From positions 118 to 64,117 of the forward strand of contig JAUVLV010000005.1 in NCBI GenBank assembly GCA_030600545.1: 64,000 nucleotides of DNA, given 5' to 3'. A model generated the notes under the pieces. The model was not told where the DNA came from. It saw only the letters and a list, made by a program, of their open reading frames with translations, and did not search any database. The position numbers and the translations under genes are program-made. The DNA comes from Candidatus Aegiribacteria sp. Lineage in GTDB: Bacteria > Fermentibacterota > Fermentibacteria > Fermentibacterales > JCC-6. Below are positions 35,101 through 52,117 of the stretch, in pieces (position 1 is the first letter of the stretch; every line of letters starts with the position of its first letter).

Positions 35101-35219
35101 TGTGGGCTCCCATGGCAAGAACCGTTGCCGGAGGCCTTGCGGTAGCCACGGTTCTGACGCTGGTCGTTCTGCCCTGCCTTTATGTGAAATTGGACAGGTG
35201 GCGTAAGGACACGGGCTAA
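32166..35219 (+). CDS. RND efflux permease (AcrB/AcrD/AcrF family)
   Basis: 1017 aa with 12-TM RND architecture. GMIVDNSVVVLENI and GIVVNNGIVFIDY motifs. Confidence 0.9.
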   Translation: MSLPGLVVKRRITFLMIFILMAGAGLFAVTQLGIDYFPKVDLGRIAVITMLPGAGPSEVEGLITEVIEVAVSGVEGIETVVSTSKNGVSLITLELMNSADIDQAEVDVRDAVDRVKDQLPESSSDPVIMAMESSMKPLIMVTFSSDMMTGTQLRNLVDEEISPRLGRVEGIASVDISGGQIRQINVEVDPVLLAELEMPISQLYGALSAIGVDQPGGAIEDGDMEFSVSVKSGFDDLSSIRELVIGVHEGRPVRLEEVAHVVDGHAEQTDFTHLDQGEAILLVFRKSSDANTVNTCSRLESAIEELSEDYAGTLETEIIYNQERFITGSMKDLMLTAVQAVILAAAVLTFFLGSVSNAGIVSLSMPLSFVATFAVMYLLGVSLNIMSLAGLSISIGMIVDNSVVVLENIHRWRREGEDRAKAAEHGAAQVGMAVTASTLTTVAVFIPMLFVPGMTGQIFRDLSLTIAAALFISLFVSQSLIPLLASRSKNLIKPHSQRSIATRVQGWLSRLEERYSRAIGWLTEHSKFVFIPVILIFILSIFMMRFIPKTYLPEPKEGVIDIDISLAPGTGLEFTDSLLVEIETRIFEILQPGDLANSYMNVGKREGIGALFGSSSSSNGEINLYFVKESERSGSIEYYDAAIREMLGEVPGIEYSLSSGMPIGNEFPVRIVLYGTDLAELRNIGEIVKSEMYRIPGAVDISSSLGNQLMQVDFIPDENVLFLRGQSPARIGSEVTIGLLGLNASTYTENSREYDVNIRYAEEGRSSREAVSGLIAYGMPLDAWGSFRNTLVPEEIGRRNRTRTVEITCRINDRALGEVAADVEIMMDTLNLGGHRYEIIGDIKDRGEAFGSMAIAIGVAIILVYMVMASQFESLLEPFIIIVEVPLALIGVIWTLLLTGSTMGLTALVGLLMLTGIVVNNGIVFIDYANQLRRKEGMSSREAIVIAGRKRMRPILMTAITTILALMPLAIGATESSVMWAPMARTVAGGLAVATVLTLVVLPCLYVKLDRWRKDTG

Positions 35220-36061
35220 CCCTTAAGCAAACCCTGAAGTACTTGCTCGACTAGAGAGACAGTCCTATCCTCGGGGTCGCGATAGGGAATCTCGAGGGAT
35301 ATTTCCTGAATAAGAGCAGATGCCCGATTTTCAAGAGCATGCTCCAGAATGGATTTGATTGATACTACGGTATTTCGGGTGAATGTTCTTGCGAGGTCAT
35401 ATCCAAGTACGAATGCCGAAGCTAATTCAACATCATAACCTAAATTCTCTAGCTTACTTGGGAATTCTTCATGAAGAAACTCCAGACCATACCATTCCTC
35501 AGCATGCCGCAAGAAGTACGCGAGGTCGTGCGCATCCTCTGAATCTTTCTGCAAGTAGTGGCGATCAGCCCATACAAGCACCTTCAATCCAAACTGCTCT
35601 GCATAGCCGGCAACACGAACCGGGAATGCCCCATTGATTATGACAACCAGGGCTGACTTATGAGCTTCTTCGAATCCAAGTACATTCATTTCGTATCGAT
35701 CGTCTTTCCCCCATCGGTAAACCTTCCCTGGACCGGCAAATTCACCGAATGGAACGATATTGATGGTGGATCCACTATTGTGTACCAGGCGCTGGACTTC
35801 TCCCTCGACAGGATCGAATCGGTGCCTTTCGCACAGGTGGTTACGAAGTGAATCATACTCATCAAGTGAGTCTACACATACGCCAAGATCCAGGTCTCCC
35901 GTGGCTCGCCCAGGTCTCATTTCTGACAGATACTCGCATATGAAAACTCTTGCAGAGGCACCACATATGAACCATTCAATTTCCATGTCTTCTGCCACTT
36001 CAGTTACAGCCTTCAGGATCACTGCATATGCTTCGCAGACTCTGATAGAATTACTTCTCAA
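35216..36061 (-). CDS. AbiEii/AbiGii-like nucleotidyltransferase (type IV TA / abortive-infection toxin type)
   Basis: N-terminal CGASARVF..RATGDLDLGV (GG.A....R.T.D.D. type) and later FGLKVLVWADRHYLQKDSEDAHDLAYFL (K...a.R....D..Dl). Overlaps the upstream partner by 11 nt. Confidence 0.5.
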   Translation of the reverse strand: MRSNSIRVCEAYAVILKAVTEVAEDMEIEWFICGASARVFICEYLSEMRPGRATGDLDLGVCVDSLDEYDSLRNHLCERHRFDPVEGEVQRLVHNSGSTINIVPFGEFAGPGKVYRWGKDDRYEMNVLGFEEAHKSALVVIINGAFPVRVAGYAEQFGLKVLVWADRHYLQKDSEDAHDLAYFLRHAEEWYGLEFLHEEFPSKLENLGYDVELASAFVLGYDLARTFTRNTVVSIKSILEHALENRASALIQEISLEIPYRDPEDRTVSLVEQVLQGLLKG

Positions 36062-37160
36062 GGAACTGCTCCCTGATCATTTCCGCGACCTCAATGTTTC
36101 GAGCTCCTCCAGTCGCATGCAAGTCAGCATAGACAAGCAAAGGAGGAGCGATTCCATGAGGAGTATTGTCATCGGGTAGGGCATGCCAGAATTTATCAAG
36201 CACATTGACTTCTCCCTGGTCATCCTTCCTGAGTCTGAGCGCACGAGCAAATTCAGGGAAGTCATCTCCGATGTAGACGGTCGCAACCTCTGGATGGAGG
36301 TAGTGGGTTAATTCTTCTGCTGCCACTTCACCGCCGAGATATACATCTATAGCTTGGAAATTCTTGTTCTTCCACCACTTTGGTAATTCCGTCGTAAAAC
36401 GCCTTGGATTCAGTTTCGGTCTCAGTTCAGTCGCGTACGCATCAACCCATCGATCTATTAAGACCTTCCTTCGATTCAGCACTGTGCCTTCTCGTAGTCT
36501 GCTGATGTAGCCATACTCTCGAAGGTCCGTAATAGTGTTGCCTACCGTCCCAAGTGCAACACCAGCCATTTTCGCGATCTCTCGATACGGTTGACGGATT
36601 ATGTGCCGGTTACATAGAAGAACGAATAATACTCTCAGCCCAGCGTTTCTGAAGAGACGAACCCTGTCGAAGGTTGCTATGCCTCGGTCTTTGTACCCAA
36701 CAATGTTGATAAATACTCCAGGATCATTTTGTACGATAAACATGTTCCCTGCAGTATCCAGAAATTGGATGTTCTGTTTCTTAAGTCTTTCAGCAATTGG
36801 AGGTGTCACATGCTTCGTGACTAGTAGAAATGGATTCGGGATACGCTCTTTCAGAATTGCGATCGCAGCGATTGTTTCTTGTCTCAGCTCATTCTTCACT
36901 AGCACATGATAAGGCTCAAGCAACTCGTCGAATTCCACGATCGCATCAATGAATGTGTCATCAACCCGCGCCTCCAATTTATACCTTACACCTTCAACAG
37001 GGATAACTCCCTTCAGGTGATCGAAGGCCTCTTTCAGGATTCTCTCCATGGTATACTTCTCAGTTCTCATATTGTTCTGCCTCTCCTCGGCGTTCAATAT
37101 TTTAGCGTGTTCATTGGCGGTGAACATATGAATAAATTGAACAATGTGAAATCCTGTCAA
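36051..37160 (-). CDS. AbiEi-like wHTH protein (putative cognate antitoxin/regulator)
   Basis: Central YREIAKMAGVALGTVGNTITDLREYGYI (HTH-like) followed by RKVLIDRWVDAYATELRPKL. Position and overlap with the NTase gene fit AbiEi/AbiEii organisation. Family recalled from memory only. Confidence 0.4.
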   Translation of the reverse strand: MTGFHIVQFIHMFTANEHAKILNAEERQNNMRTEKYTMERILKEAFDHLKGVIPVEGVRYKLEARVDDTFIDAIVEFDELLEPYHVLVKNELRQETIAAIAILKERIPNPFLLVTKHVTPPIAERLKKQNIQFLDTAGNMFIVQNDPGVFINIVGYKDRGIATFDRVRLFRNAGLRVLFVLLCNRHIIRQPYREIAKMAGVALGTVGNTITDLREYGYISRLREGTVLNRRKVLIDRWVDAYATELRPKLNPRRFTTELPKWWKNKNFQAIDVYLGGEVAAEELTHYLHPEVATVYIGDDFPEFARALRLRKDDQGEVNVLDKFWHALPDDNTPHGIAPPLLVYADLHATGGARNIEVAEMIREQFLEK

Positions 37161-37234: not shown

Positions 37235-37426
37235 TTACCAACAAAACCAACAGAACTGGAAACTGATGCATCTGAAGAAGTCCGTTCATCATGCTCCTGC
37301 CGCAGAAGACAGCTGTGGGCTGTGCTTCTCAAGAAAGTCTGGGACATCGATGCTTTGAAATGTCCGAAGTGCGGTGGAAAAATGAGCCATGCAACAAGTT
37401 GTGGAATTCTGACTCGAAGGGTTTAA
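37235..37426 (+). pseudogene. IS91-family (HUH Y2) transposase, C-terminal relic
   Basis: ..RRRQLWAVLLKKVWDIDALKCPKCGGKM.. matches the conserved IS91-type C-terminus (R..sWa.LL.rVF.iD.l.CP.CGg.M). No upstream catalytic region is present and the downstream tail is compressed. Confidence 0.55.
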
Positions 37427-37624: not shown

Positions 37625-39061
37625 ATGATCGACGATTCATCAACCGATTTCTATCTCGCCCATCCGGATGTGTCCACCAGAATACTGGAGGACAGAGGAG
37701 CGGTTCTGTTTAATCCTGATACAGGCCGGAAAAAGATCATCAATACCACCGGAGCATTCATCTGGGCACGCCTTGACGGTTCTCGACACCCGAAAGAGAT
37801 CATCGAGGAAATGCTGGATAATTTTAGCGACGTGCCCCGCAATCAGGTTAGAGACGATCTTGTTACGTTCTTGAACAGGATGACAGATGAAGGGATTGTT
37901 TCCGTTCAACAGTCGCGGGCAGCTACCGGCGGGACTATCAGGACCTTTCCCGACGCTACTGACGGACCGGAATCGTTCGATTTGTCACTGACCGGCAGGT
38001 GTAACCTGCACTGCGCTTATTGCTTTTACAGTCAGGAAATGAAATCCCTCCATGATCTGCCGAAGGATGAGTGGCTGAGTTTTTTTAAAGAACTGCGAGA
38101 CCTTGCGGTTCGGGACGTTTGTTTAAGCGGAGGAGAAGTTTTTCTCCGCCCGGATCTCTGGGAGTTGATCGACGCGTTAACTGACTGCCGAATGCGTTAC
38201 AGCTTACTGACCAACGGTACTCTTGTAACCGAAGATACCCTGGCACAGTTTGAAGCCGGAAAGCGCCGTCAGCGGTTAAGCAGCATCCAGATCTCAATTG
38301 ACGGGTCCTGCGCCGATGTGCACGATAGAAGTCGCGGTCAGGGCAGCTTTAAAAATGCCATCAGGGGGTTACGCCTTCTTAAAGATGCCGGTTTTCCGAT
38401 TACTGTTCGGGTAACGATTAATCAGCACAATGTGGACGACCTGGACAATATCGCCAGGTTGCTCCTTGATGATATAAAGATCGCCAGTTTCGGCACCAAC
38501 GATGTCATGCCCATGGGCGCCGGTTGCGATAATCAGAAAACGATTACGTTGCTCCCGCTGCAGCAGGTAAAGGCCATGAAAACACTGGCGAGGCTGGCTG
38601 ATCAATACGACGGGCGAATTACCGCTAGTGCAGGTCCCCTTGCCAAGTGGCGCACTTACCAGGAAATGGAGCATGCCCGCGCTACCGGTGAGATGTCCAC
38701 CCGCTGGAAAATGGGCTATTTGGCGGCCTGCGGCTGCATGTACAATAAGCTGTCCGTGCATCATAACGGCATTATTACGCCATGCAACATAATGGCCAAA
38801 ATGGAGCTGGGGCGGATCAACCGGGATGTGCTGACGGATATCTGGAAAACCCAACCTCTGCTTCAGTCTCTGAAGGACAGACGCCAAATTCCCATGACCG
38901 AAGTTCCCGGCTGCGAGGATTGCGAATGGGCGCCCTTTTGTAATGGAAGTTGTCCGGGGCTGGCCTATGAACTGACCGGTGATGTCAACCAGGCCAATCC
39001 GCATGATTGCTACTACCGGTTTTTGCAGAACACCGGGGGAATGAATTTTGAGTACGATTAA
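37625..39061 (+). CDS. Radical SAM/SPASM peptide-maturase-type enzyme with fused N-terminal PqqD-like (RRE) domain
   Basis: N-terminus ILEDRGAVLFNPDTGRKKIINTTGAFIWARLDG...DDLVTFLNRMTDEGIV (PqqD-like). LTGRCNLHCAYCF (CX3CX2C). C-terminus ACGCMYNK..ITPCN..PGCEDCEWAPFCNGSCPG (SPASM-type Cys pattern). Confidence 0.9.
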   Translation: MIDDSSTDFYLAHPDVSTRILEDRGAVLFNPDTGRKKIINTTGAFIWARLDGSRHPKEIIEEMLDNFSDVPRNQVRDDLVTFLNRMTDEGIVSVQQSRAATGGTIRTFPDATDGPESFDLSLTGRCNLHCAYCFYSQEMKSLHDLPKDEWLSFFKELRDLAVRDVCLSGGEVFLRPDLWELIDALTDCRMRYSLLTNGTLVTEDTLAQFEAGKRRQRLSSIQISIDGSCADVHDRSRGQGSFKNAIRGLRLLKDAGFPITVRVTINQHNVDDLDNIARLLLDDIKIASFGTNDVMPMGAGCDNQKTITLLPLQQVKAMKTLARLADQYDGRITASAGPLAKWRTYQEMEHARATGEMSTRWKMGYLAACGCMYNKLSVHHNGIITPCNIMAKMELGRINRDVLTDIWKTQPLLQSLKDRRQIPMTEVPGCEDCEWAPFCNGSCPGLAYELTGDVNQANPHDCYYRFLQNTGGMNFEYD

Positions 39062-39225
39062 TATTGAGTTGCAGATAAGCGGTTCCTCGGTGCATTCCTG
39101 CAGTATAACAACGGTTTCGTGTTCCGCGACCTGTAACTGCAGTGAAATCGGATTTTAAGACACATATGGATTGGAAGACCGATAGCATAATGCCAGGAGA
39201 ATTGCCAAATGATAATGTATAACGT

Positions 39226-40323
39226 ATGTATAATACTATGAATGATAATGTGAAAATAGTAGTACCGCCGTTAAGCGTTATTTACCTGTACATTACGGGT
39301 TCGTGCAACCTTAACTGCCGCCATTGCTGGATAGACCCGGTCTTTGAAAAAGATGGCATCTCACCTGACAAATATCTCCCCTGGGCGGACATTAAGAAGA
39401 TCGCTGAAGATGCCCGGGAATTGGGGCTGGGGCTAATCAAGATAACGGGAGGAGAACCGTTCCTCCACCCGGAAATGTGTGATATTCTCTATAGACTGAA
39501 GGAGATGGGGTTATCTCTGAGTATGGAGACGAACGGCACCCTTATCGGCGAGCGGGAAGCAGTGGCGCTTAAAGACAATGCTGTCAGATTCTCGGTTTCC
39601 ATAGACGGGCCGACAGCCGAGATGCATGACAGCCTGCGTGGTGTTAAAGGTGCTTTTGATAGAACAATGACCGGTCTGAAACATGTGCGGCGGGAAAAGC
39701 TCGATTTTCAGATCATCTCCTGTCTTTACCGCGGCAATTCAGACCGACTGGCTGAAATGGTTGAATTTGCCCGACAGGTGGGTGCCAGTTCTCTGAAAAT
39801 TAATGTCATCAACAGTATCGCCCGGTCTGATCAAATGAACAAGGCAGGTGAATTGCTGACCGTGCCGGAAGTCCTGTCGGTTTACCGTGATTTTAAGCAG
39901 GAGCTTGTTGATCTTGAGAATTTCCGCGTAATTTTTGATATTCCCCCGGCGTTCAAAAGTTTGAAAGAGATCCGGACCCACGGCTTTGGTACCTGCGGTA
40001 TTCTTTACATACTGGGGGTGCTTCACAATGGTCATGCAGGGTTATGCGGAATTGGTCTGCATGTAAAAGAACTGGATTTCGGCGATCTGAAAACACTTGG
40101 AATAAAACAAATATGGGAGGAGAACGCTATTCTCAACTCCATAAGGGAAAACCTGCCCCACAGCCTGGAGGGTATCTGCGGCCGGTGCGCACTGCGATCG
40201 TACTGCCTTGGTAAATGCATTGCAAATACGTATAATATTAAGCAAAACCTTTTTGGAGCCTATGGATTCTGCCAGGACGCGTACAGCATGGGACTGTTCC
40301 CTGAGACGAGGATTGTTAATTGA
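39226..40323 (+). CDS. Radical SAM/SPASM enzyme (second maturase candidate)
   Basis: ITGSCNLNCRHCW and ITGGEPFLHPE. C-terminus GTCGILY..HAGLCGIG..GICGRCALRSYCLGKC. An alternative start at 39238 is coupled to a 10-codon uORF. Confidence 0.9.
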   Translation: MYNTMNDNVKIVVPPLSVIYLYITGSCNLNCRHCWIDPVFEKDGISPDKYLPWADIKKIAEDARELGLGLIKITGGEPFLHPEMCDILYRLKEMGLSLSMETNGTLIGEREAVALKDNAVRFSVSIDGPTAEMHDSLRGVKGAFDRTMTGLKHVRREKLDFQIISCLYRGNSDRLAEMVEFARQVGASSLKINVINSIARSDQMNKAGELLTVPEVLSVYRDFKQELVDLENFRVIFDIPPAFKSLKEIRTHGFGTCGILYILGVLHNGHAGLCGIGLHVKELDFGDLKTLGIKQIWEENAILNSIRENLPHSLEGICGRCALRSYCLGKCIANTYNIKQNLFGAYGFCQDAYSMGLFPETRIVN

Positions 40324-40949
40324 AACATTCGGCAGAGGAAAACTACTCAGCGGTTAAAAACCTCACCAGCAGAGAAAATTTCTGTCTTTATATGCTTGAA
40401 GGCGGGAGTATGCGCCCCGCTTTTCATGAGGGAGATCTCCTTCTTTTGAAAAAAGTGCCGTCGGTATCACTGAAACCGGGCAATGTTATCGCCTTTTATT
40501 CACCTTGTCTCCAGAAAACTGTCATACACCGGATCATTGGATTCCGGAATACCGATACAGATCGTTTATTGCTTACCCGGGGAGACAGCTCCGGCCGTCC
40601 GGACGAACCGGTACAGCTGCAATTTGTTAAGGGACGTGTTTCCGCGCGATTGAGTAACGGCCATTTTCAGCCAGGCAAACGGTATCATGAATTATTCTGG
40701 CTTCACGCATCCCGGTGGCGCCGATCATTTCGTCGTTTAGTTAAATACCTGGCTGTTAAAATCACACAGATAGTATTTCCTGTTCTGCCAGTTCGGGTTC
40801 GAGCGCGGCTGAGAGGTCTGAAAATATTGAAAACTGCTTTTCCGGGTAAAAGAATGATTGAGGAAGAACTCCGGCCGGGCACCGGGAATCGTGTCTGGAT
40901 TCATCCGCTGTTCGCGAAAACAAGGCTGAATGACAGGTTCAGAATATGA
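40320..40949 (+). CDS. S26-type peptidase (Ser/His, archaeal/SipW-like signal-peptidase fold); leader-peptidase candidate
   Basis: GGSMRPAFHEGDLLLLKK (nucleophile Ser), TVIHRIIGF (His in place of the bacterial Lys), and LLTRGDSSGRPDEP (GDxN-type box). TTG start overlaps the rSAM stop. No N-terminal TM anchor is evident. Confidence 0.6.
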   Translation: MKHSAEENYSAVKNLTSRENFCLYMLEGGSMRPAFHEGDLLLLKKVPSVSLKPGNVIAFYSPCLQKTVIHRIIGFRNTDTDRLLLTRGDSSGRPDEPVQLQFVKGRVSARLSNGHFQPGKRYHELFWLHASRWRRSFRRLVKYLAVKITQIVFPVLPVRVRARLRGLKILKTAFPGKRMIEEELRPGTGNRVWIHPLFAKTRLNDRFRI

Positions 40950-41221
40950 CAGACTTACAGTACAGATTAAATCCGAAGATCGTTTTCCGGGAAGAGGAGG
41001 GTGAGTCCCTGCTGTTTGATCCCGATACCGGCCGGGTCAAGATTCTCAACGAAACCGGTACTCTGATCTATGAGCTGTTAACGCAGAAATTGAGCAGGGA
41101 AAAGATAGTTGATTCCATCACATCCGAATACGACAATATGAACCGTCAGGACCTGGAGCAGGATCTTGACGAATTTGCGGCTCAAATGGAGCAATCGGGC
41201 ATTTTAACAGTTATTACATAA
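40946..41221 (+). CDS. Stand-alone PqqD-family (RRE-type) peptide-binding protein
   Basis: IVFREEEGESLLFDPDTGRVKILNETGTLIYELL..SREKIVDSITSEY..DLDEFAAQMEQSGIL. ATGA overlap with the upstream gene. Confidence 0.75.
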   Translation: MTDLQYRLNPKIVFREEEGESLLFDPDTGRVKILNETGTLIYELLTQKLSREKIVDSITSEYDNMNRQDLEQDLDEFAAQMEQSGILTVIT

Positions 41222-41231
41222 GGAGAAGATA

Positions 41232-41486
41232 ATGACAGTCAAAAAGAAAGCATACGAAAAGCCGATGATTCAGGATCTCGGGCGGATATTGACCGGTTCA
41301 GCGCAAATGCCGATGGGCTATTGCACTTCTGGTGATTCTCCCTCCGGAGCACAGCAGGAATGTACGGGAGGAAGCGGCGTTTCGACTGCGTGCGTCGGTG
41401 GGAATTTATTCAACTATCCTCAGGATGTCTGCCAGGCCGGGGGAGTGGCAGCTGATTATTGCGGCTTCGGGGGATCTGTTGGTTGA
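41232..41486 (+). CDS. RiPP precursor-peptide candidate (84 aa): Lys-rich leader and Cys/Gly-rich repetitive core
   Basis: AGGAG 6 nt upstream of the ATG. The leader is MTVKKKAYEKPMIQDLGRILTGSA. The core has 5 Cys, each in a CxxG context, with spacing C-x12-C-x9-C-x12-C-x9-C. It sits inside the rSAM/PqqD cassette. Confidence 0.7.
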   Translation: MTVKKKAYEKPMIQDLGRILTGSAQMPMGYCTSGDSPSGAQQECTGGSGVSTACVGGNLFNYPQDVCQAGGVAADYCGFGGSVG

Positions 41487-41522
41487 GGTTTTGGAGCGAC
41501 GCCTTAAATCGGAGAGGAATTA

Positions 41523-42404
41523 TTGCGTTTCAGCATCCGGCTTCCATTAACAGAGACTGCAGTCTCATTGGTCATAAGGGACAGTGTATTATTCAATCCT
41601 GATTCCTCACCGCCGGTATTCAAACCTTTTGATATTGAACAGTCCGATTCGTTCAGGAAAGTGTATACAATCGACCTTGTCATGGCCGATGGAAAAACCC
41701 GGCCGACCGGTCGGCAGCTTCTGAATTATCGCGATGTTGTTAGTATCTATGAAAATGATATGCAGCTCTTTGTTGAACTGGCTGAAACTGCTTCAGATGA
41801 TTGCCAGGTTCTGGCCAACATGGGCGTTTCACTCGCACTCTGTCATATACTCTGCCGGGAGAATATTTTCCTCCTTCATGCCGCCTCGATCGTCAGAAAC
41901 AACCAGGGGTTTATTTTCCCAGGCCGAAGCGGCTCCGGCAAAACAACTCTTTCCAGATTGTCTATCGACGAAAACCACGTACTGTGCGATGAGCACTCCG
42001 CGGTGATGGGCAATAGTGCTTGCCGTGCGGATGAAACCGGCAGTGCCTACAGTGTTTTTCCCGGTCCCCGGTGGGCTCAGTTCACGTTTGATCCTGAATA
42101 TTACAGTGAAGCAGCCTGGCGGGATGAGCCCTATCGCGCCTTCCCCCTGAAGGCCATCATTTTCCCGAGCAGGTCGGGCCTGCGCGACGACACATGGCTT
42201 GAGAGGCTCGACAAAATTGACGCAACCGTTTCATTGATTGAGCGGTTCATTGACACCTCCTTTGTAAAAGCACTGCCGGCTGAAACCCATAGAAAAGCTT
42301 TTCATTTCTTCTCGCAGCTTGCGCGAAGCATCCCCTGCTACAGCATTCATGCTAATCTTCAGACCGATTTCTGGAAGACAATCGATGAAACAGTCGGGCG
42401 GTAA
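41523..42404 (+). CDS. HPr-kinase-C-terminal-like P-loop protein
   Basis: LLHAASIVRNNQGFIFPGRSGSGKTTLSRLS...VLCDEHSAV resembles the HprK C-terminal G.SG.GKS/T...L..DD block. TTG start after GGAGAGGA. Confidence 0.55.
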   Translation: MRFSIRLPLTETAVSLVIRDSVLFNPDSSPPVFKPFDIEQSDSFRKVYTIDLVMADGKTRPTGRQLLNYRDVVSIYENDMQLFVELAETASDDCQVLANMGVSLALCHILCRENIFLLHAASIVRNNQGFIFPGRSGSGKTTLSRLSIDENHVLCDEHSAVMGNSACRADETGSAYSVFPGPRWAQFTFDPEYYSEAAWRDEPYRAFPLKAIIFPSRSGLRDDTWLERLDKIDATVSLIERFIDTSFVKALPAETHRKAFHFFSQLARSIPCYSIHANLQTDFWKTIDETVGR

Positions 42405-42666
42405 GACAATGTCGGCCAGGGAAGATTTTGCCGTCGAGGAATTCGGCGGAGAAGCTTTGATAGTAAGGCTTGCAGATATGCGTTTATTCAGGGTCAACAA
42501 ACATGCCCTGGTATTATTTGAGATGTTGCTGGAGTCCAACTGTAATGCTGCCGCTGCTGTAGAGACTGCTGAAAAACATAAGATGGATCTGGATCCTAAG
42601 GATATTGAATCGGTTCAGAAGATTTTGTTTTCCTCAGAAAAAGATCGAGGGAAAAGTCAGCTGTAG
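42385..42666 (+). CDS. Small PqqD-like protein (third RRE-type module); start 42385 or 42409
   Basis: FAVEEFGGEALIVRLADMRLFRVNKHALVLFEMLLESN...DPKDIESVQKIL follows the PqqD pattern (v.e.vdge.vl.....g.l..lN.tA..i...l). The track start at 42319 lies inside the upstream gene. Confidence 0.45.
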   Translation: MKQSGGKTMSAREDFAVEEFGGEALIVRLADMRLFRVNKHALVLFEMLLESNCNAAAAVETAEKHKMDLDPKDIESVQKILFSSEKDRGKSQL

Positions 42667-42683: not shown

Positions 42684-42911
42684 TTACATCTCATGGTACT
42701 TGGCATAGTCCTGGAAGATGACTCTTATATTCCCGCGGTGCTCCTCCACTACAAAATCCTTTATGGATATACCATCAATATTTATGCTGCCTGATGCAGG
42801 ATCACAAAGCCCCGCCAGATTTCCCAGGAGATACCGGTACTTCCCGGTGGAACCTGCAGTGTTTACCATCCACATTTCAGATAGTATTTTAACATCTGTG
42901 CGGTACTTATC
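42684..42911 (-). pseudogene. ABC-transporter ATP-binding domain relic (Walker A to Q-loop segment only)
   Basis: DVKILSEMWMVNTAGSTGKYRYLLGNLAGLCDPASGSINIDGISIKDFVVEEHRGNIRVIFQDYA aligns with l.dvs..i..Ge.v.ivG.SGSGKSTll.ll.gl..p..G.I.iDG.di......lR..i..v.Qd. Walker A is degenerate, and stops bound an open frame of about 76 codons. Confidence 0.5.
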
Positions 42912-43515: not shown

Positions 43516-44721
43516 TCAGAAGTAATATCCCGATGACATAAAACATACTCCTGGCCAGGAGCCGAACTCTGATAAAGGGGTAGCATCGCAGGAAAGAGGT
43601 TTTTTCCCCACTCCTTGCCTGTAACCCATATTTAGAACAATATCTTCCCGGACACTGTATTCTCCCGATAGAGAGATGTAGGCTGATGGGTCGGCAAGGT
43701 TAAAGAGGGCGCTTGCGTTGAGGTTCAGGAGCGGGCTGAGTGTCCATGAAAGGCCGGGGCACAGGTAGTGCCTTCCCAGAAGGTAGATTCCGCCGTTCGT
43801 CCATGCCGGGCCTGTGATAATGTCAGTATAATCCGCAGCATCGTCCGACCCGGAGGAATTGAAATGGTATTCAAGGTATCCATACAGAGTGGCATTAAAC
43901 CAGCTCCTGTCGTAACCTGTTGAAATGCTCCAGAAAGTATCTTCATCCTCCGTTTCTTCCTCTCCGAAAAAGCTTGTGGTTACTACTGCTAATTCCATCC
44001 ATCCCGTTCCCCTTCCAAGGGAACGGTTGAGGCTTCCTCCTATCATGAGATTTTTCCTGAAGCATGCTGTAATAAGGGTGGCATCCGTCCGGAACAGATA
44101 AAACCTGCCACGAAGCCAGCAGCCGCTTTCTGAGAATCGTCCGTTCTTACCAAAAACATAACCCGCGTCCAGTTCGGACATCATACCAACTGGAAAAACC
44201 GACCTTATTGCATCTACGCCTGTTCTGTATTCTGTATTCACTGTGCCGTACTGAAAGGGCGCAATAAAATCGGTTGGGCTTATGGATTTGGCAACTCCCC
44301 AGAAAATGGCCTGTCTTCCAGCTGTCAATGTTGCTATTGAGGTTCTCAGAGAGAGATTCAGCCTGTCAAGGTTCTGAAGTATGCTGAAGGATTCGTCACC
44401 GTTCCAGCCGGAAGGAAATATTCTTCTTTCAAGCTCAGCCATTCTGAATATATGTGAATCATTTCCACTGGTATTACCGCTGAGAGCAGGATTACCCGCA
44501 GTAGGAACTGGAACCCATGCTGAATTGAAATCCAATTCTCCGATTTCATGATGCAGCATCAATCTGAGTGGAACCTGGAATACGTAACGAAGGGAGGAGT
44601 CGGGAAAGGTCTGATCTGTTATTGAAAACTCCGGTTTAAGGACACCGGATATTTCGATTTCGTTGGCTGTTACTCCGTTGATCACTGACAGGATGAAAGT
44701 AAAGAATATGATCGATTTCAT
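43516..44721 (-). CDS. Predicted outer-membrane beta-barrel protein, last gene of the ABC cassette
   Basis: Signal peptide, alternating beta-strand-like pattern rich in G/S/Y/W, and a C-terminal ..SSGYYF. ATGA-type overlap with the ATPase gene. Confidence 0.5.
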   Translation of the reverse strand: MKSIIFFTFILSVINGVTANEIEISGVLKPEFSITDQTFPDSSLRYVFQVPLRLMLHHEIGELDFNSAWVPVPTAGNPALSGNTSGNDSHIFRMAELERRIFPSGWNGDESFSILQNLDRLNLSLRTSIATLTAGRQAIFWGVAKSISPTDFIAPFQYGTVNTEYRTGVDAIRSVFPVGMMSELDAGYVFGKNGRFSESGCWLRGRFYLFRTDATLITACFRKNLMIGGSLNRSLGRGTGWMELAVVTTSFFGEEETEDEDTFWSISTGYDRSWFNATLYGYLEYHFNSSGSDDAADYTDIITGPAWTNGGIYLLGRHYLCPGLSWTLSPLLNLNASALFNLADPSAYISLSGEYSVREDIVLNMGYRQGVGKKPLSCDATPLSEFGSWPGVCFMSSGYYF

Positions 44722-45428
44722 TCAAATTTTTCCGGGGATGTGTTTCCATCCAGCTTTCCATCCCTCAGAACAACAATCTTCTTTGCCCTCTGTATTACGA
44801 TCTCATCATGGGTTGAAAACAGAAAAGTCATTCCAGTTTCCTCGTTGAGCTTTCGCATCATATCAAGAAGGGCTCCACTGGTTTTTGAATCAAGGTTCGC
44901 TGTAGGCTCATCGGCAATAACAAGGGAAGGACGGGAGACCACCGCTCTGGCCACCGCCACTCTCTGTTGCTGGCCTCCCGATAACTGAAGGGGCAGCCTT
45001 GTGGCGTATTCGGCGATTCCTACTTTTTCCAGACTGTTCATTACCCTTTTGTGGCGTTCAGCGGGAGGAATTCCCTGGAGAAGCATTATGTATTCAACAT
45101 TTTCCTCTACCGTGAGTACCGGAAACAGATTGTAAGCCTGGAAAACAAAGCCTATATGATCCCTCCTGAAGTCGGAAAGCTCTCTTCCGCTCATCTCGGA
45201 AATCAGTTTTCCTGATAGCCATACTTTCCCCTCGGTGGGCGTATCGAGCCCGGCCAGAACATTGAGAAAGGTCGTTTTTCCCGAACCGGATGGTCCAATT
45301 ATGGCAGTGAATTCTCCTTTTGTAAGGGTGTAGTCTATGCCCCTTACCGCATGGACAGGAACACCGGAATCATCGTAGGTTTTTACAATTCCTTCAGCGA
45401 CTATTACATTGGTATCAACCATATACAT
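44718..45428 (-). CDS. ABC transporter ATP-binding protein (MacB/LolD type)
   Basis: GPSGSGKTTFLNVLAGLD, LSGGQQQRVAVARA, and LVIADEPTANLD. Confidence 0.9.
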   Translation of the reverse strand: MYMVDTNVIVAEGIVKTYDDSGVPVHAVRGIDYTLTKGEFTAIIGPSGSGKTTFLNVLAGLDTPTEGKVWLSGKLISEMSGRELSDFRRDHIGFVFQAYNLFPVLTVEENVEYIMLLQGIPPAERHKRVMNSLEKVGIAEYATRLPLQLSGGQQQRVAVARAVVSRPSLVIADEPTANLDSKTSGALLDMMRKLNEETGMTFLFSTHDEIVIQRAKKIVVLRDGKLDGNTSPEKFE

Positions 45429-45437
45429 CTCCGTGAT

Positions 45438-46661
45438 CTATAAGCTTTTACGTATTGCTTCAGCCGGGTTCAGCCTGCCGGCGTGGATCCCCGGACAAAT
45501 TCCTGCAGCCGTTGTAAGAATCAGAGTGAAGAGAGGATATATCCATACCCGGCTGAGCTTGAGTATTGGATATAGCGGTTTGTTAAATACAACACCTGAT
45601 ACATCGAACTCGCCGAAGTTTATCCCTGTTCTTGAGGTTATCCATATTATCAGCAGACCAATTATGCTTCCTGTCAGTGTACTGATCACCGCGATCCAGA
45701 AAGCCTCAAGAATAACCATGGCGTTTATTGTTCCTGCTCTGGTTCCTACAGCCTTCATAACCCCGAATTCGTACATTCTCTCAAATATTGACATGAATAG
45801 GGAATTAACTATTCCGAAAACAACAAGAGCAAAAAGAATCATGGCAGTTATTGCCATGCCCAGATCAACCATGTTGAGCATTGTGCTGACCTGTGGTGCT
45901 AGTTCCGGCCATCCGAGGGCGCTGTTTCTAAAAACAGAGAATTTACTCCAGAATCCAAGAGTGGTATCAGCCCCCATCTCCGATTCTGCGAATCTCACTG
46001 CTATTTCATGAATACTCCCCGGTATGCCGAGCATTCTGCCTGCCGTGTTCAGGTTAATAAAAGCGGAATATCGATCAAGGTCATCGCTGCCGAAACGGCA
46101 TATACCTGACACAAAGAACATATTGCTCGATAGTCCGCTGTCAGCCTGGGCAGCAGTGATAACGATTACATCACCAGGGGCGGCGTTCAGATCATCCGCC
46201 AGTTTGTATCCGATAATGAGTTCGGTGCTGTCTCCGCTCAGGTAAGAACCCGAATCGATGGCAGCTTCCAGCATTGTCACTGCAGGATCGGTTTCACTGT
46301 CAACGCCGATGAGGGTGACTGGCTTCAGTTCCGTAGTTGATGTTGCCGATGCAGGGGACAGAATCCGCGGGGTGCAGGCGCTTACTGTTGAATCCTGTCC
46401 GAGCATGAATAGAACCGAATCTGGCCTCTCAACAGTAAGGTCAATCCTCTTTGTGTCCAGAAAACCGTCACGATGGATCTGGGCATCTCCCATCCAGGAT
46501 TCAGTCGTTGTCTGTATCATATGCTCGCTCATGCCCTGCATAAGAGCTTCGTAAAAGATCATTGAACCAAGACCCATACCAACGGCAAGACCGGTTATCA
46601 CAGTTCTCCTGCCATTCCTCCAGATGCTTCTCCAGGCGAACTTCACAAGCCTGCAGAACAT
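45438..46661 (-). CDS. FtsX-family ABC permease (MacB/LolC/E-like)
   Basis: N-terminal TM, a large periplasmic domain, then 3 TM segments. FGVMKAVGTRAG and a C-terminal AGRLNPAEAIR. Confidence 0.85.
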   Translation of the reverse strand: MFCRLVKFAWRSIWRNGRRTVITGLAVGMGLGSMIFYEALMQGMSEHMIQTTTESWMGDAQIHRDGFLDTKRIDLTVERPDSVLFMLGQDSTVSACTPRILSPASATSTTELKPVTLIGVDSETDPAVTMLEAAIDSGSYLSGDSTELIIGYKLADDLNAAPGDVIVITAAQADSGLSSNMFFVSGICRFGSDDLDRYSAFINLNTAGRMLGIPGSIHEIAVRFAESEMGADTTLGFWSKFSVFRNSALGWPELAPQVSTMLNMVDLGMAITAMILFALVVFGIVNSLFMSIFERMYEFGVMKAVGTRAGTINAMVILEAFWIAVISTLTGSIIGLLIIWITSRTGINFGEFDVSGVVFNKPLYPILKLSRVWIYPLFTLILTTAAGICPGIHAGRLNPAEAIRKSL

Positions 46662-46662
46662 G

Positions 46663-47928
46663 CTATACCGTCCTCAGAGATTTAGCGGCTTTAGTATGGG
46701 CAGCCTTGAGCGCCGGAAGGAAGCTTACCGTTGAAGCGGTAATGATCACGCATATGGCAGGGATCCAGTAACAGTCCGGAGATATTGAGGCGATCATCTC
46801 GCTGAAGACTGTGCCTCCGTAATTAATTGGCGGGTCAAGGACCAGACCATGTTTCGAAAGGAAAAGAAGCCCTCCTGTACTCAGTATGCTGCCGGCGATT
46901 ATGCTGATAATTCCCATGATATTGGCTTCCAGGACTATCATCCTTACGATGAACCCGGGTTTAGTCCCGAGGGCTTTCATCACACCGAATTCCCGCCTCC
47001 GCTCGAGGACCATCATAAGAATTGTGTTGAGAACTCCCATTGCGGCTACAAACATTATTATGAAAATCATTACCTTAAGGCTTGATTCATCGGCCTTCAT
47101 CCCGTTATAGAATTCCTTCGCGAAAGTTTTCCAGGAATCGGTTTCAACATCTCTTCCCGATAACCTTGCGGATATATCTTCCGTAAGATCATCGACTGTG
47201 CCCAGCGAATTGGTCATTACGGCCAGTTCGTGCACCTTCCCCGATAGGGCGAACATGATACGGGCATCGGCCAGCGTAATGTAACAGGTGTTTCTGTCGA
47301 TATCGGCATTACCGGTGCTTACAATGCCCTGGATTACATACTTCCTGTCCGCGCTTGCGCCGTCAGCTGCCTGTGAAAGCATGATGAGGGAGTCTCCTGC
47401 TGAGGCATCAAGAATAATAGACAGTTCCTGTCCGAGTATGATCTGACCGGTGGCGTAGTAGAATGAATCCGCTGCGGAAGCTGTCAGCATCCCTCCGCTT
47501 ACGATATTACTCGAGAAATCCGTGGCTGCATCCTCCATTGAAGGGTCCAATCCGATCACCGACGCTGCCGCCGAGTTGGAGAACACGTTTCCGGACTCAG
47601 CGTCACCTGACCTGACTGCAAGAAGAGCTCCGGAATAGATCCTGGGTGCCCATGTTCTGACACCGGGCAAGGAATCCAGAACAGCTCCAATTGACTGGTA
47701 ATCGCTGATCGTTGAATAGATGGATGGATCTTCGAGATAGCCGCTGTGGTGTATCTGGATCTGACCAGTCCTGCCGTTCGTGAAGAACATGATAATGCTG
47801 CCATACGAGCCGTTCATCCACCCGATGGAAATGGAGGAGAGGAAAAAACCGCCGGTCATGGTCAGAAGAGTTAAAATCGTTCTTCTTTTCTGCCGGAACA
47901 CGTTCCGCCAGGCCAGTTTTAAAAGCAT
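46663..47928 (-). CDS. FtsX-family ABC permease (second subunit)
   Basis: MLLKLAWRNVFRQKRRT, FGVMKALGTKPG, and LPALKAAHTKAAKSLR. ATG at 47928 lies 1 nt after the upstream stop. Confidence 0.85.
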   Translation of the reverse strand: MLLKLAWRNVFRQKRRTILTLLTMTGGFFLSSISIGWMNGSYGSIIMFFTNGRTGQIQIHHSGYLEDPSIYSTISDYQSIGAVLDSLPGVRTWAPRIYSGALLAVRSGDAESGNVFSNSAAASVIGLDPSMEDAATDFSSNIVSGGMLTASAADSFYYATGQIILGQELSIILDASAGDSLIMLSQAADGASADRKYVIQGIVSTGNADIDRNTCYITLADARIMFALSGKVHELAVMTNSLGTVDDLTEDISARLSGRDVETDSWKTFAKEFYNGMKADESSLKVMIFIIMFVAAMGVLNTILMMVLERRREFGVMKALGTKPGFIVRMIVLEANIMGIISIIAGSILSTGGLLFLSKHGLVLDPPINYGGTVFSEMIASISPDCYWIPAICVIITASTVSFLPALKAAHTKAAKSLRTV

Positions 47929-47929
47929 A

Positions 47930-48700
47930 TCACCGGGACTGAAGGTTTCTGAGGGAAAAGATATTTTCGTCCACACCCTGGTTGAATTCAGCGTTAGACC
48001 AGGTTATGGTTGTGCTCTGATCTTCATTATAAGCGGGGATTACCTGCATCTGCGAAGGTATTGTTCTGCAGCCCATTTCCTGTACATCGGAGTAGGTGAC
48101 AGTTTTAATCAGGCTGTCGTGACTGTCGAAGTACTTTTCCCAGAGGGGAATTGTGTCAGAAATACTGACTGCGCAGACGATGCTGGACCATACCACTGCG
48201 GTGGATGATTTCGGAACCAGTCTGACGTATACAACCCCCTCCGCAGTATCACCTGTAAGATCAGTATCGGTTGTGTACGAGTAAGTGTAATCCTCCGCGT
48301 AGGTGATTTCTCTGACTATATCGTTATTAGTGATGTCCGAACCCATCCACGAGCCTGCCATCATCGAGGGTGGTACTCTGACTGTGCTGTTGGTATTAGG
48401 AAGGTAATTCCACATTTCGGTACCGATTCTGAGGGTTGCCATTCCGGCTTCCCTTACGGGGGATAGTACCCTGATGAAGGTATTGTCCGTTCCATGGGAC
48501 CAGGCATTCATTGTAAGTGTTCGTTCCCAGTGTTCCGTTACGATGTGCATCGACATCTCAGTGTAACTGTCGTCGCTTCTGTAAAGCCGGTCCAGAGAAT
48601 GTACAAGGTCGTCTATATCAGGCTGGGAACAGGCTGTGGAAATGAAACCGGGAATGCATATCATGGTAAAGATTATTGTCAGATATTTCATTCTTCTCAC
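47930..48700 (-). CDS. LolA-like outer-membrane lipoprotein-sorting-type protein
   Basis: Signal peptide with Cys (FISTACS). ..TMNAWSHGTDNTFIRVLSPVREAGMATLRIGTEMWNYLPNTN..VRVPPSMMAGSWMGSDITNNDI resembles the LolA_like pattern. GTGA overlap with the TetR gene. Confidence 0.6.
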   Translation of the reverse strand: MRRMKYLTIIFTMICIPGFISTACSQPDIDDLVHSLDRLYRSDDSYTEMSMHIVTEHWERTLTMNAWSHGTDNTFIRVLSPVREAGMATLRIGTEMWNYLPNTNSTVRVPPSMMAGSWMGSDITNNDIVREITYAEDYTYSYTTDTDLTGDTAEGVVYVRLVPKSSTAVVWSSIVCAVSISDTIPLWEKYFDSHDSLIKTVTYSDVQEMGCRTIPSQMQVIPAYNEDQSTTITWSNAEFNQGVDENIFSLRNLQSR

Positions 48701-49308
48701 CGTTCAGGCGCAAGTCCACTGAAAAGAACCTCAAGCATTTTCTCAAGGGATTCCATTAACTGTTCTGAAGTTCTTTTCTCATCCGCTGCATACCACATGA
48801 GCGCGGTACTGACTGTTCCATATATCACCATTGACGCATGTTCGATATCCGCATCGGAAGTAAGCATATGGTTTTCTTTCAATTCCAGCAGCACTCTGTT
48901 AAGTCCGTTTAAAAGAGTCAGATCCCGCCTGATAAGGCCGTTGCTCAATGTAGTATCAATGCTCCATGCTTCTCTCATCAATTCGCGAATAAGCCGTTTC
49001 GGATACATTGACAGACTTTCCATAAAAGTATCTACATATTGCAACACACCTTCAATTCCCGTGCAGGATTCAGGGAGCTGAAATTTCTCGTACAGAGCCT
49101 CTGATGTATCATCGGCGGTAATGGCCAGAATTATTGCGCTTTTCGATTCGAAATAATTATATACCGTCCCCACTGCGACCTCAGCCTTCTCTGCTATAGC
49201 TTCTATTGTTGTTCCATCGAAGCCTCGGCTGAAGAACATGTTCCTTGCCGCTTTCAGTATAGATTTTCGCGAGCGATCCTTTTTGATTTCTCTCAGTCCC
49301 ATGAACAA
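48697..49308 (-). CDS. TetR-family transcriptional regulator (probable ATG at 49302)
   Basis: ILKAARNMFFSRGFDGTTIEAIAEKAEVAVGTVYNYFESKSAI. GGGGGG lies upstream of the ATG at 49302. Confidence 0.85.
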   Translation of the reverse strand: MFMGLREIKKDRSRKSILKAARNMFFSRGFDGTTIEAIAEKAEVAVGTVYNYFESKSAIILAITADDTSEALYEKFQLPESCTGIEGVLQYVDTFMESLSMYPKRLIRELMREAWSIDTTLSNGLIRRDLTLLNGLNRVLLELKENHMLTSDADIEHASMVIYGTVSTALMWYAADEKRTSEQLMESLEKMLEVLFSGLAPER

Positions 49309-50717: not shown

Positions 50718-51025
50718 TTTTTCCAGAAGCCTCCTTATTCTATCAAGCCTTACAGTTTCAAGTTCCGAAATATGGATTGGTGTATTCCATGAAACAGTAA
50801 AGGTATACCTGATTTCCAGACAGCTGCAATATAGCAAATAGATTATTGTAATCCAGCGCAGTCGGCAAGAGACTCGCCGTACATTTCAGGATCATGTTAG
50901 ATTTGTAAGTTGGAACCTGCAGAAAAGATGCTGTTTTGCATCACCTCTGCTGTAGTGCTGGAATACTCAGTGTTATGGTCATAGCCGGTGGAAATGCATA
51001 CAAAGATAACTATACTTGACCTACC

Positions 51026-51979: not shown

Positions 51980-52117
51980 TAATCACGCGTTTGTTAAATT
52001 TAACATACTATGACAGCATAACCTTGCCGGCAGTATACTTGTTATTCAGTAAGTAAGCATTCAGGAAATCACGGCAAATGAAAGGAAATATTTATTCCCG
52101 CCAGAATTGTCTTCGTA

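Follow-up and report, generated by a model that had tools for sequence, protein, structure and literature searches.

The question raised by seven tightly packed genes (g1 to g7, positions 37625-42666) in a 64,000-nucleotide stretch of Candidatus Aegiribacteria sp. DNA is what they make, and from which substrate. The stretch, referred to below as the window, comprises positions 118 to 64,117 of contig JAUVLV010000005.1 (assembly GCA_030600545.1). The genes encode two radical S-adenosylmethionine (rSAM) proteins with SPASM domains, g1 and g2; a serine peptidase, g3; a small PqqD-family protein, g4; a Cys/Gly-rich peptide, g5; a P-loop protein, g6; and a further small protein, g7. They probably form one biosynthetic cassette for a peptide that is ribosomally made and modified after translation (RiPP), a divergent offshoot of the SynChlorMet (Scm) family with g5 as substrate, which would work by the mechanism proposed below.

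SynChlorMet is an orphan system in TIGRFAMs/NCBIfam and is defined bioinformatically only. To our knowledge, its TIGRFAMs description identifies no precursor; a literature search, with subscription journals outside its range, found no paper on the Scm cassette and no assigned precursor or product. A candidate is now assigned: a precursor family with a recognisable leader and a modular core. Since this family is conserved, the Scm system becomes testable by co-expression and mass spectrometry.

Family membership and layout of the cassette

The Scm family is described by four NCBIfam models, TIGR04248 (ScmD), TIGR04249 (ScmC), TIGR04250 (ScmE) and TIGR04251 (ScmF), and by Pfam PF27840 (ScmC). 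All four marker genes are found within 5 kb on one strand of the window. g1 matches ScmE with 409.3 bits over model positions 2-356 of 358, above the cut-off of 400, and is named ScmE in the JGI annotation. The best NCBIfam match of g2 is ScmF (333.6 bits, positions 2-353 of 353; cut-off 400), and the next-best family reaches 148 bits; as the match is full-length but below the cut-off, g2 represents a divergent ScmF subfamily. The best match of g4 is a tie between ScmD (36.6 bits, cut-off 100) and a lasso PqqD chaperone model (36.4 bits), both below their cut-offs. g6 matches ScmC best (50.4 bits, model positions 125-290; cut-off 125). These comparisons support placing the cassette in a divergent branch of the Scm family; membership is partial, with one of four thresholds passed. 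The resemblance to SynChlorMet proposed in a preliminary description of the locus is borne out to this extent.

The seven co-directional ORFs (open reading frames) given in that description are all intact on the forward strand. Overlaps of 4 bp join g2 to g3 and g3 to g4, as had been reported for the second rSAM, peptidase and PqqD genes. g5 starts 10 nt after g4 and has the strong Shine-Dalgarno sequence attributed to it, AAGGAGAAGATAATG, on its 5' side; the ATG of g7 lies 5 nt past the g6 stop. One gene call uses an alternative g2 start at 39238. The GC (guanine plus cytosine) content of the region is like that of its flanks.

The gap between the ScmE and ScmF genes is 164 bp here, against 27-41 bp in relatives. 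A 36-aa Cys-rich ORF in this gap (MSTINIELQISGSSVHSCSITTVSCSATCNCSEIGF) was considered as a hidden second precursor and rejected; it is probably due to chance, because the gap in relatives is so short. No second small conserved ORF besides g5 was found in the cassette. Promoter and terminator scans gave results near shuffle expectation and are uninformative, and a search of the whole window for Rfam families was negative.

Candidate precursor peptide

The precursor role of g5 is supported by sequence evidence of four kinds: an invariant leader and invariant cysteines, adjacency to ScmC in all related cassettes retrieved, purifying selection, and related peptides in more typical Scm cassettes. 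The preliminary description had singled out this ORF as the precursor candidate, and on these grounds g5 can be kept as the putative substrate peptide of the cassette.

The leader takes up approximately residues 1-24 (KKxYEKPxIxDLGxILTGSA); the core, approximately residues 25-84, contains five C-x-x-G modules. A search of 5.8 billion proteins recovered close homologs in eight clusters, with 66-100% identity. In their alignment the N-terminal third is near-invariant (Y8-E-K-P11-x-I13-x-D-L-G17-x-I-L-T-G-S-A-Q, with Y8, P11 and G17 invariant), and so are the five cysteines that open the modules, at positions 31, 44, 54, 67 and 77. A profile search of 1.84 billion representatives returned only 24 matches; peptides that share this design, 71-97 aa long, account for about 13 of them. 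Long Cys/Gly-rich proteins among the matches (P0157 and others) were treated as compositional matches and not as relatives.

Alignment of 23 peptides shows Y8, P11 and three C-x-x-G pairs to be invariant, with conservation of at least 90% for a fourth pair; the core is therefore a series of C-x-x-G modules, which across the family are spaced 10-13 residues apart. The core is otherwise variable: length ranges over 70-97 aa, the number of cysteines is 3-7, and the C-terminus differs. At the positions of G22 and A24, small residues stand in almost all of these peptides, referred to below as type 1. None of the Pfam and NCBIfam models (June 2026) recognises g5 or the peptides of its relatives in typical cassettes; the sole Pfam trace is a sub-threshold DUF5972 match on the leader, and assignment of g5 to a known peptide family was rejected.

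The segment Y8-E-K-P11-x-I13 is invariant or conservatively replaced across the family and is similar to the YxxPxL motif of lasso leaders. Together with the PqqD-type RiPP recognition element (RRE) g4, this is a likeness in leader recognition only. Lasso systems use their B1 RRE to bind the YxxPxL motif (PMC10368454).

Synteny, selection and typical Scm cassettes

A DNA-level metagenome scan with the peptide alignment (A1) retrieved seven independent contigs. The order ScmF-S26-PqqD-peptide-ScmC-g7 is kept in all seven loci, as far as each contig reaches. In more distant cassettes, L004/L005/L009 from a Candidatus Fermentibacteraceae metagenome-assembled genome (ScmC 49% identical) and L006, ScmC is directly flanked by the peptide upstream and by a g7 homolog downstream, and L004 and L006 keep the same core gene order. 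In L004 a second ScmC fragment of 154 aa (PF27840), perhaps a degraded copy or the result of duplication, lies after the g7 homolog and before an S26-like gene.

Ratios of nonsynonymous to synonymous substitution (dN/dS; Nei-Gojobori, g3 to g7 against five relatives) are 0.29-0.42 for g3, 0.11-0.23 for g4, 0.21-0.60 for g5, 0.15-0.24 for g6 and 0.09-0.26 for g7. The compared genes, g5 included, are under purifying selection. Lack of conservation of the small ORF beside homologs of its neighbours, which the preliminary description had named as evidence that would speak against a precursor, is thus not what is seen: g5 is conserved, its position is syntenic in every metagenome locus and its dN/dS is below one throughout.

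More typical Scm cassettes were inspected on five long, ScmE-anchored contigs (L047, L048, L049, L059 and L060). All five share the order ScmE, 200-aa double PqqD, ScmF, short ScmC (~190 aa), peptide (~90 aa) and S26-like gene; ScmF of L047 scores 367 bits against TIGR04251. Their peptides, directly after ScmC in each case, contain KKxxYEKP and are Cys/Gly-rich (e.g. MPNKKIKYEKPKSMAVGKIASVLGESCSDGTSAGDQC... and MKKIRYEKPTCMDAGPVAAIQGASCSSYGSG...), and their S26-like genes carry the same Ser/His/Asp boxes as g3. As both recur in the five typical cassettes, a precursor and an S26 peptidase are regular, previously unrecognised members of Scm cassettes. The precursor ORF is uncalled in two of the five (L047 and L049), where a mis-started downstream S26-like gene overlaps it; such misses may help to explain the lack of an assigned precursor for the Scm cassette. 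An ABC (ATP-binding cassette) exporter adjoins the cassettes in L006 and in all five typical loci, and an NTP_transf_5 gene is found near the cassette in L047, L049 and L060.

Radical SAM enzymes

Both g1 and g2 are rSAM/SPASM proteins, as first described. g1 has an N-terminal PqqD domain fused to its catalytic domain, with Pfam matches to PqqD (5e-14), Radical_SAM (6e-26) and SPASM (1e-7). g2 matches Radical_SAM (4e-24), while its SPASM score of 21.1 bits is just below the gathering score of 21.5. Direct reading of the sequences gives both proteins the CX3CX2C motif and the full SPASM cysteine pattern, G-x4-C ... CX2CX5CX3C ... C; the motifs are CNLHCAYC and CX2CX5CX3C in g1, and CNLNCRHC and CGRCALRSYCLGKC in g2.

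Anaerobic metagenomes are rich in ScmE-like proteins: g1 has at least 1581 homologs at E<=1e-40, and the PqqD fusion is present in 119 of 120 among the matches listed. The closest named relative is from Candidatus Fermentibacteria (84% identity), which points to that group as the probable source of the window. NCBI or JGI annotations give the name ScmE to several homologs, found in Fermentibacteria, Desulfobacteraceae and other groups. The nearest solved structure is that of the sactisynthase SkfB (E 8.5e-20). Scores against curated models of sactipeptide and ranthipeptide maturases are below the cut-offs (StsB 118 against 625, AlbA 91 against 850, PapB 86 against 340, SkfB 81 against 300), and PqqE and MftC model scores are far under theirs. 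Clustering of both rSAM proteins with enzymes of unrelated function, raised as a possibility in the preliminary description, was tested and is not what the matches give.

PqqD-like proteins and g7

g4 matches Pfam PqqD (E 1.9e-13), in agreement with its description as a stand-alone PqqD-like protein. Three PqqD-like modules had been proposed for the locus; two are demonstrated, the g1 domain and g4. The third, in g7, is not established, because g7 has no family match in Pfam or NCBIfam at E<=1-10, its alignment to PqqD families is weak (hhalign probability 2-22%, each time in the same register over the strand and first-helix region) and its single-sequence AF2 model is unusable (predicted local distance difference test, pLDDT, 57). 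g7 homologs stand directly after ScmC in L004, L006, L050, L051 and L052, always downstream of the long ScmC type. g7 is possibly a divergent RRE-like partner of long ScmC.

S26-type peptidase

g3 is a Ser/His peptidase of the S26 type, as proposed: it scores 64.5 bits against TIGR02228 (archaeal/ER-type signal peptidase I; cut-off 51.85) and in its alignment to human SEC11A/C the catalytic Ser, His and Asp (GD box) are matched. The residues in question are Ser30 (GGSMRP), His70 (IHRI) and Asp88 (TRGD), a triad retained by 11 cassette peptidases from all related cassette types. g3 scores below the gathering thresholds of the Pfam S24 and S26 models and weakly matches a maturation protease model for nickel superoxide dismutase (Ni-SOD).

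True signal peptidases have an N-terminal membrane anchor. This anchor is missing in g3 and in the equivalent cassette peptidases; the maximum hydrophobicity of g3 over 19 residues (KD19) is 1.55 and is located only at residues 140-158. We therefore infer from its sequence that g3 is a soluble or peripheral maturation protease. It also has a family-specific basic C-terminal extension. S26-like peptidases are found in all five ScmE-anchored cassettes and, in other phyla, in at least 21 of 37 listed ScmC loci, where they lie just upstream of ScmC.

ScmC-like protein

g6 was first described as an HPr-kinase-like P-loop protein, and its matches and its modelled fold agree with this. Besides the ScmC match there are weak matches to HprK_rel_A and PEPCK (phosphoenolpyruvate carboxykinase); Pfam Hpr_kinase_C does not match g6, and a faint match is on record for a relative. 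PF27840 matches are precomputed for 23 of 23 g6 homologs and for the identical JGI gene, and the length of 293 aa is shared by five homologs. The AF2 model (pLDDT 81, predicted template modelling score 0.83) retrieves ATP-dependent PEPCK first in Foldseek (E 8e-8) and HPr kinase/phosphorylase (HprK/P) next (E 1.6e-3), and the family profile aligns to the PEPCK kinase-1a motif 'H...GLSGTGKTTLS'. Among 14 homologs with identities as low as 18%, the invariant positions are His119, the Walker A motif G134-x-S-G-S-G-K140-T-T and Asp156; Glu157 is conserved in at least 90%. On the model, g6 is a PEPCK/HprK-fold P-loop protein with an intact Walker A motif, and its catalysis is predicted.

An HprK-like kinase of a lasso cluster, BsfK, phosphorylates the precursor, and the reaction is accelerated by an RRE (PMC10368454). 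Mutagenesis has shown that its His, Gly, Lys-Ser and Asp-Asp positions matter (PMC10368454); equivalents are found in g6.

In the preliminary description the kinase-like protein appeared as an addition to the SynChlorMet cassette. The HprK-like fold stands; the status of an addition does not, as the protein is ScmC, the 'conserved hypothetical' of that cassette. The claim that peptidase and kinase together fit no characterised class divides in the same manner: both are present, and neither is a special addition, the one recurring in relatives and the other being ScmC. ScmC, previously 'unknown', can thus be described as a kinase-fold protein, and a soluble S26 peptidase as a regular member of the cassette.

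Sister system with one radical SAM enzyme

A related system with a single rSAM enzyme and Ser-ending peptides is widespread in Acidobacteriota. A genome scan for ScmC gave, among the matches listed, 37 further loci (L010-L046); most belong to Acidobacteriota, and the others to Omnitrophota, Thermomonas, Polyangia and Kiritimatiellia. The cassettes contain S26-like, ScmC-like and PqqD genes and one rSAM/SPASM gene, the last of which is adjacent in 36 of the 37. A second type of peptide of ~55-60 aa (type 2; ...KKPYxKPxFRxExVFETxALxCGKxxxTQxxCxxNRKxS) is carried by 17 of these loci. The four type-2 peptides that were scanned match no Pfam or NCBIfam model.

All 18 type-2 peptides found end in Ser, and A-L-[ASTR] stands just before the first Cys. 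A C-terminal Ser is the residue phosphorylated by HprK-like kinases in several lasso peptides, according to work cited in PMC10368454. By this analogy the terminal Ser of type-2 peptides is the likely kinase target, and its occurrence in every peptide is indirect support for ScmC as a peptide kinase.

In L048 an rSAM domain is fused to a ScmC domain in one protein. The fusion gene adjoins a second, type-2-like peptide (MKKRKWKTPKLEII...CSARGQS) beside the type-1 Scm cassette, so that two related RiPP systems lie side by side; a type-2-like peptide is also found in L059. Taken together, type-1 and sister cassettes form a superfamily of rSAM RiPP clusters with a kinase, which is partly invisible to gene callers and hidden Markov model libraries.

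Proposed pathway

The substrate would be g5, with a leader of ~24 residues and a core of ~60 residues made up of the five C-x-x-G modules. Two RREs, the one fused to ScmE and the free-standing g4, would hold the leader segment Y-E-K-P-x-I-x-D-L-G. ScmE and ScmF would then modify the Cys modules, most likely by forming thioether rings from Cys sulfur to carbon as in sactipeptides and ranthipeptides. Thioethers are favoured on account of the Cys-rich core, the complete SPASM domains and the closeness of SkfB, the nearest structure. For ScmC the most likely reaction is phosphorylation of the precursor on a Ser or Thr, like that carried out by the HprK-like kinases of lasso clusters, possibly with g7 as an adaptor.

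The leader would be removed by the soluble S26/Sec11-type Ser-His-Asp peptidase g3, plausibly after G22-S23-A24. S26 enzymes follow a -3/-1 small-residue rule; G22 and A24 of type-1 peptides and the A-L-[ASTR] of type-2 peptides fit this rule. In relatives the product would be exported by the dedicated ABC exporter, of which a relic is left here. By analogy with characterised systems the thioether is the most likely type of cross-link, and the kinase target, the cleavage site and the role of the product are likewise inferred.

Whether the Scm cassettes amount to a new RiPP class is a more tentative matter. Possibly they do: such a class would combine a novel pattern of cross-links or modifications on (C-x-x-G)n peptides with two rSAM/SPASM enzymes, RRE-assisted phosphorylation by ScmC and leader removal by a Sec11-type S26 peptidase. 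We know of no report of a soluble Sec11-type S26 peptidase in RiPP maturation.

Relation to known systems

The SynChlorMet cassette is the closest known system; like the cassette in the window, it combines two rSAM/SPASM proteins, a PqqD homolog and ScmC. The more typical cassettes that were inspected have a 200-aa double PqqD protein, whereas here PqqD has a single domain, the S26 peptidase gene lies between ScmF and PqqD, and a long ScmC of 293 aa is followed by the clade-specific 85-aa g7.

Sactipeptide and ranthipeptide systems (SkfB/SkfA, AlbA/subtilosin, PapB/freyrasin) also couple an RRE to an rSAM/SPASM enzyme acting on a Cys-repeat precursor. In contrast to these, the present cassette has two distinct rSAM/SPASM proteins, a P-loop kinase-like protein and an S26-type peptidase; its repeats are of the C-x-x-G and not the C-x3-D type, and what its sequence offers are the prerequisites of thioether formation only.

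Lasso clusters with an HprK-like kinase (paeninodin-type; BsfK/BsfB1 of Bradymonas) share the Y-x-x-P-x-(L/I) leader and the stand-alone PqqD-type RRE. Their HprK-fold kinase has the His, P-loop and acidic pair seen in ScmC, and NTP_transf_5 genes are found beside the cassettes of relatives. Lasso clusters employ an Asn-synthetase-like cyclase and a transglutaminase-like B2 leader peptidase; neither is found in the cassette or within ~12 kb of it, and rSAM/SPASM and S26-type enzymes are present instead. The earlier statement that the locus has no lasso cyclase, lanthipeptide enzyme or YcaO holds over the same ~12 kb, in which no other RiPP enzyme was found.

The pathways of pyrroloquinoline quinone (PQQ) and mycofactocin use a PqqD-family RRE, rSAM/SPASM enzymes, a small precursor and a peptidase, as here; the present cassette differs in its variable multi-modular core, its second rSAM enzyme, its kinase-like protein and the exporter of its relatives. 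Soluble S26 maturation proteases such as SodX, and Sec11 and SipW, have the Ser/His(/Asp) S26B core in common with g3. SodX, the Ni-SOD protease, also has no N-terminal membrane anchor. Unlike all of these, g3 lies inside a RiPP cassette and has a basic C-terminal extension; compared with Sec11 and SipW, its substrate is presumably a RiPP leader and not a Sec signal peptide.

Alternative explanations

Several points weigh against a RiPP cassette working as proposed. Three of the four Scm markers (g2, g4 and g6) are under their curated equivalog cut-offs, and the founding Scm genomes (Syntrophobacter, Chlorobium, Methanocella and NaphS2) lie outside the comparison. After the Scm models, secondary matches of the rSAM proteins include the heme and cofactor enzymes AhbD and NirJ, as well as the Trp-Gly-Lys cross-linker WgkB. 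Thioether formation is proposed by analogy, from the Cys-rich core and from SkfB as nearest solved structure. No Ser or Thr is invariant across the 23 type-1 precursors, so that none stands out as the kinase target, and ScmC has Asp-Glu where lasso kinases carry Asp-Asp. Expression and function in this host are uncertain, because the exporter is lost and relics flank the island.

Some of these points would also fit a product of a different kind, a peptide-derived small molecule or redox cofactor like PQQ or mycofactocin, for which the precursor is consumed and few residues are kept. The toolkit of RRE, rSAM/SPASM enzyme and peptidase is the same, PqqE and MftC join NirJ and AhbD among the secondary rSAM matches, and the window has no intact dedicated exporter. 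Cofactor precursors keep a strictly conserved reactive end, whereas in the g5 family peptide length, number of cysteines and C-terminus all vary; such variability is typical of natural-product RiPPs and not of cofactor precursors. With a dedicated ABC exporter also adjoining the cassettes of relatives, a cofactor is an unlikely product. g5 itself might be an accessory Cys-rich protein, for metal binding or immunity, with the precursor encoded elsewhere or the substrate not a peptide. The link between g5 and the enzymes is drawn from sequence comparison, the TIGRFAMs description is not known to name a precursor, and g5 is long for a RiPP precursor. Against this stand the far stronger conservation of its N-terminal third, with an RRE-binding motif of the YxxPxL kind, and the occurrence of the peptide with ScmC in all seven metagenome loci, in L004 and L006 and in the five typical cassettes; the second peptide type of the sister cassettes shares the KKxYxKP leader, and the cassette offers no other small conserved ORF. 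An accessory role is thus very improbable.

The relics are also what would be expected if the locus were the decaying, non-functional remnant of a horizontally acquired cluster without a product in this host. An IS91/ISCR-like relic lies upstream and the exporter relic downstream, an AbiE toxin-antitoxin pair stands beside the island, and the ScmE-ScmF gap is wider than in relatives. A remnant is nevertheless improbable: all seven ORFs are unbroken and their starts and stops are coupled, their order is kept in relatives at 61-87% identity, dN/dS is 0.09-0.60 in every compared gene and the GC content does not set the region apart. A RiPP cassette of the Scm family with g5 as substrate remains the preferred explanation.

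Surroundings of the cassette

Coordinates of the cassette genes and of the other features are given in Table 1. Against residues 381-440 of the L006 exporter, the relic downstream of the cassette is 50% identical, compared with ~27% for other ABC genes of the window; since it matches a cassette exporter in this manner, the cognate exporter has been lost here. The preliminary description was accordingly right both in placing an ABC relic at this edge of the island and in finding no intact exporter, as this fragment is all that is left. At the upstream edge it had placed an IS91 relic. An NCBIfam ISCR match speaks for it, while Pfam gives no match and tblastn gives none in plasmids; the relic is therefore listed as possible.

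Table 1. Positions of cassette genes, relics, neighbouring genes and related loci (window coordinates unless a locus is named)
Feature	Sequence	Coordinates	Strand	Length and basis
g1: ScmE, PqqD/RRE-rSAM-SPASM fusion	window	37625-39061	+	478 aa; Pfam, TIGR04250
g2: ScmF-like, second rSAM/SPASM without own RRE	window	39226-40323	+	365 aa; Pfam, TIGR04251
g3: Sec11/SipW-type S26 serine peptidase, putative leader peptidase	window	40320-40949	+	209 aa; TIGR02228
g4: stand-alone PqqD-family RRE, ScmD-like, also lasso-B1-like	window	40946-41221	+	91 aa; Pfam PqqD
g5: precursor peptide (candidate; C-x-x-G modules at C31, C44, C54, C67, C77)	window	41232-41486	+	84 aa; homologs, synteny, dN/dS, Shine-Dalgarno
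g6: ScmC-like PEPCK/HprK-fold P-loop protein, putative peptide kinase	window	41523-42404	+	293 aa; TTG start
g7: conserved protein after long ScmC	window	42409-42666	+	85 aa from ATG; homologs, dN/dS
Possible C-terminal IS91/ISCR-family transposase relic	window	37256-37387	+	NF052416 positions 426-469 of 509, E 1.2e-4
ABC exporter relic	window	42693-42869	-	~60 codons of the nucleotide-binding domain; fragmentary PF00005; fused permease/ATPase exporter models
Cys-rich ORF in ScmE-ScmF gap (rejected as precursor)	window	39048-39158	+	36 aa
AbiEi-like and AbiEii-like genes	window	35216-37160	-	PF09952 (AbiEi)
ORF with signal-peptide-like N-terminus	window	43516-44721	-	401 aa
MacB/FtsX ABC operon with TP_0789-like and TetR genes	window	44718-49308
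Separate rSAM protein	window	26569-27465	+	298 aa
Polysaccharide/NTP_transf_5 neighbours	window	23992-25128, 49419-53173
Polysaccharide/NTP_transf_5 neighbours	L047	1375-3381
Polysaccharide/NTP_transf_5 neighbours	L049	2099-5323
Polysaccharide/NTP_transf_5 neighbours	L060	937-6702
Uncalled precursor ORF	L047	10977-11243
Uncalled precursor ORF	L049	10811-11101
Second ScmC fragment	L004	6073-6537		154 aa; PF27840
Type-2 peptide	L013	6916-7092
Type-2 peptide	L017	7044-7226
Type-2 peptide	L019	6944-7153
Type-2 peptide	L040	7002-7169
rSAM-ScmC fusion protein	L048	13537-15443
Type-2-like peptide	L048	12472-12660
Type-2-like peptide	L059	14796-14984

Immediately upstream of the cassette, a gene for an AbiEi-like antitoxin (PF09952, 1.4e-35) overlaps one for a weakly matching AbiEii-like nucleotidyltransferase; the two are a probable type IV toxin-antitoxin pair. 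An AbiEii gene is also found near the cassette of L047. Some 11 kb upstream lies the separate rSAM protein, which has no SPASM match and no obvious link to the cassette. On the other side, neither Pfam nor NCBIfam matches the ORF with a signal-peptide-like N-terminus, which heads the MacB/FtsX operon.

Scm-type cassettes are repeatedly found beside polysaccharide genes (Poly_export/SLBB, glycosyltransferases, Bac_transf, DegT and Polysacc_synt_2) and NTP_transf_5 genes, both in the window and in L047, L049 and L060; this may reflect coincidence or a functional link.

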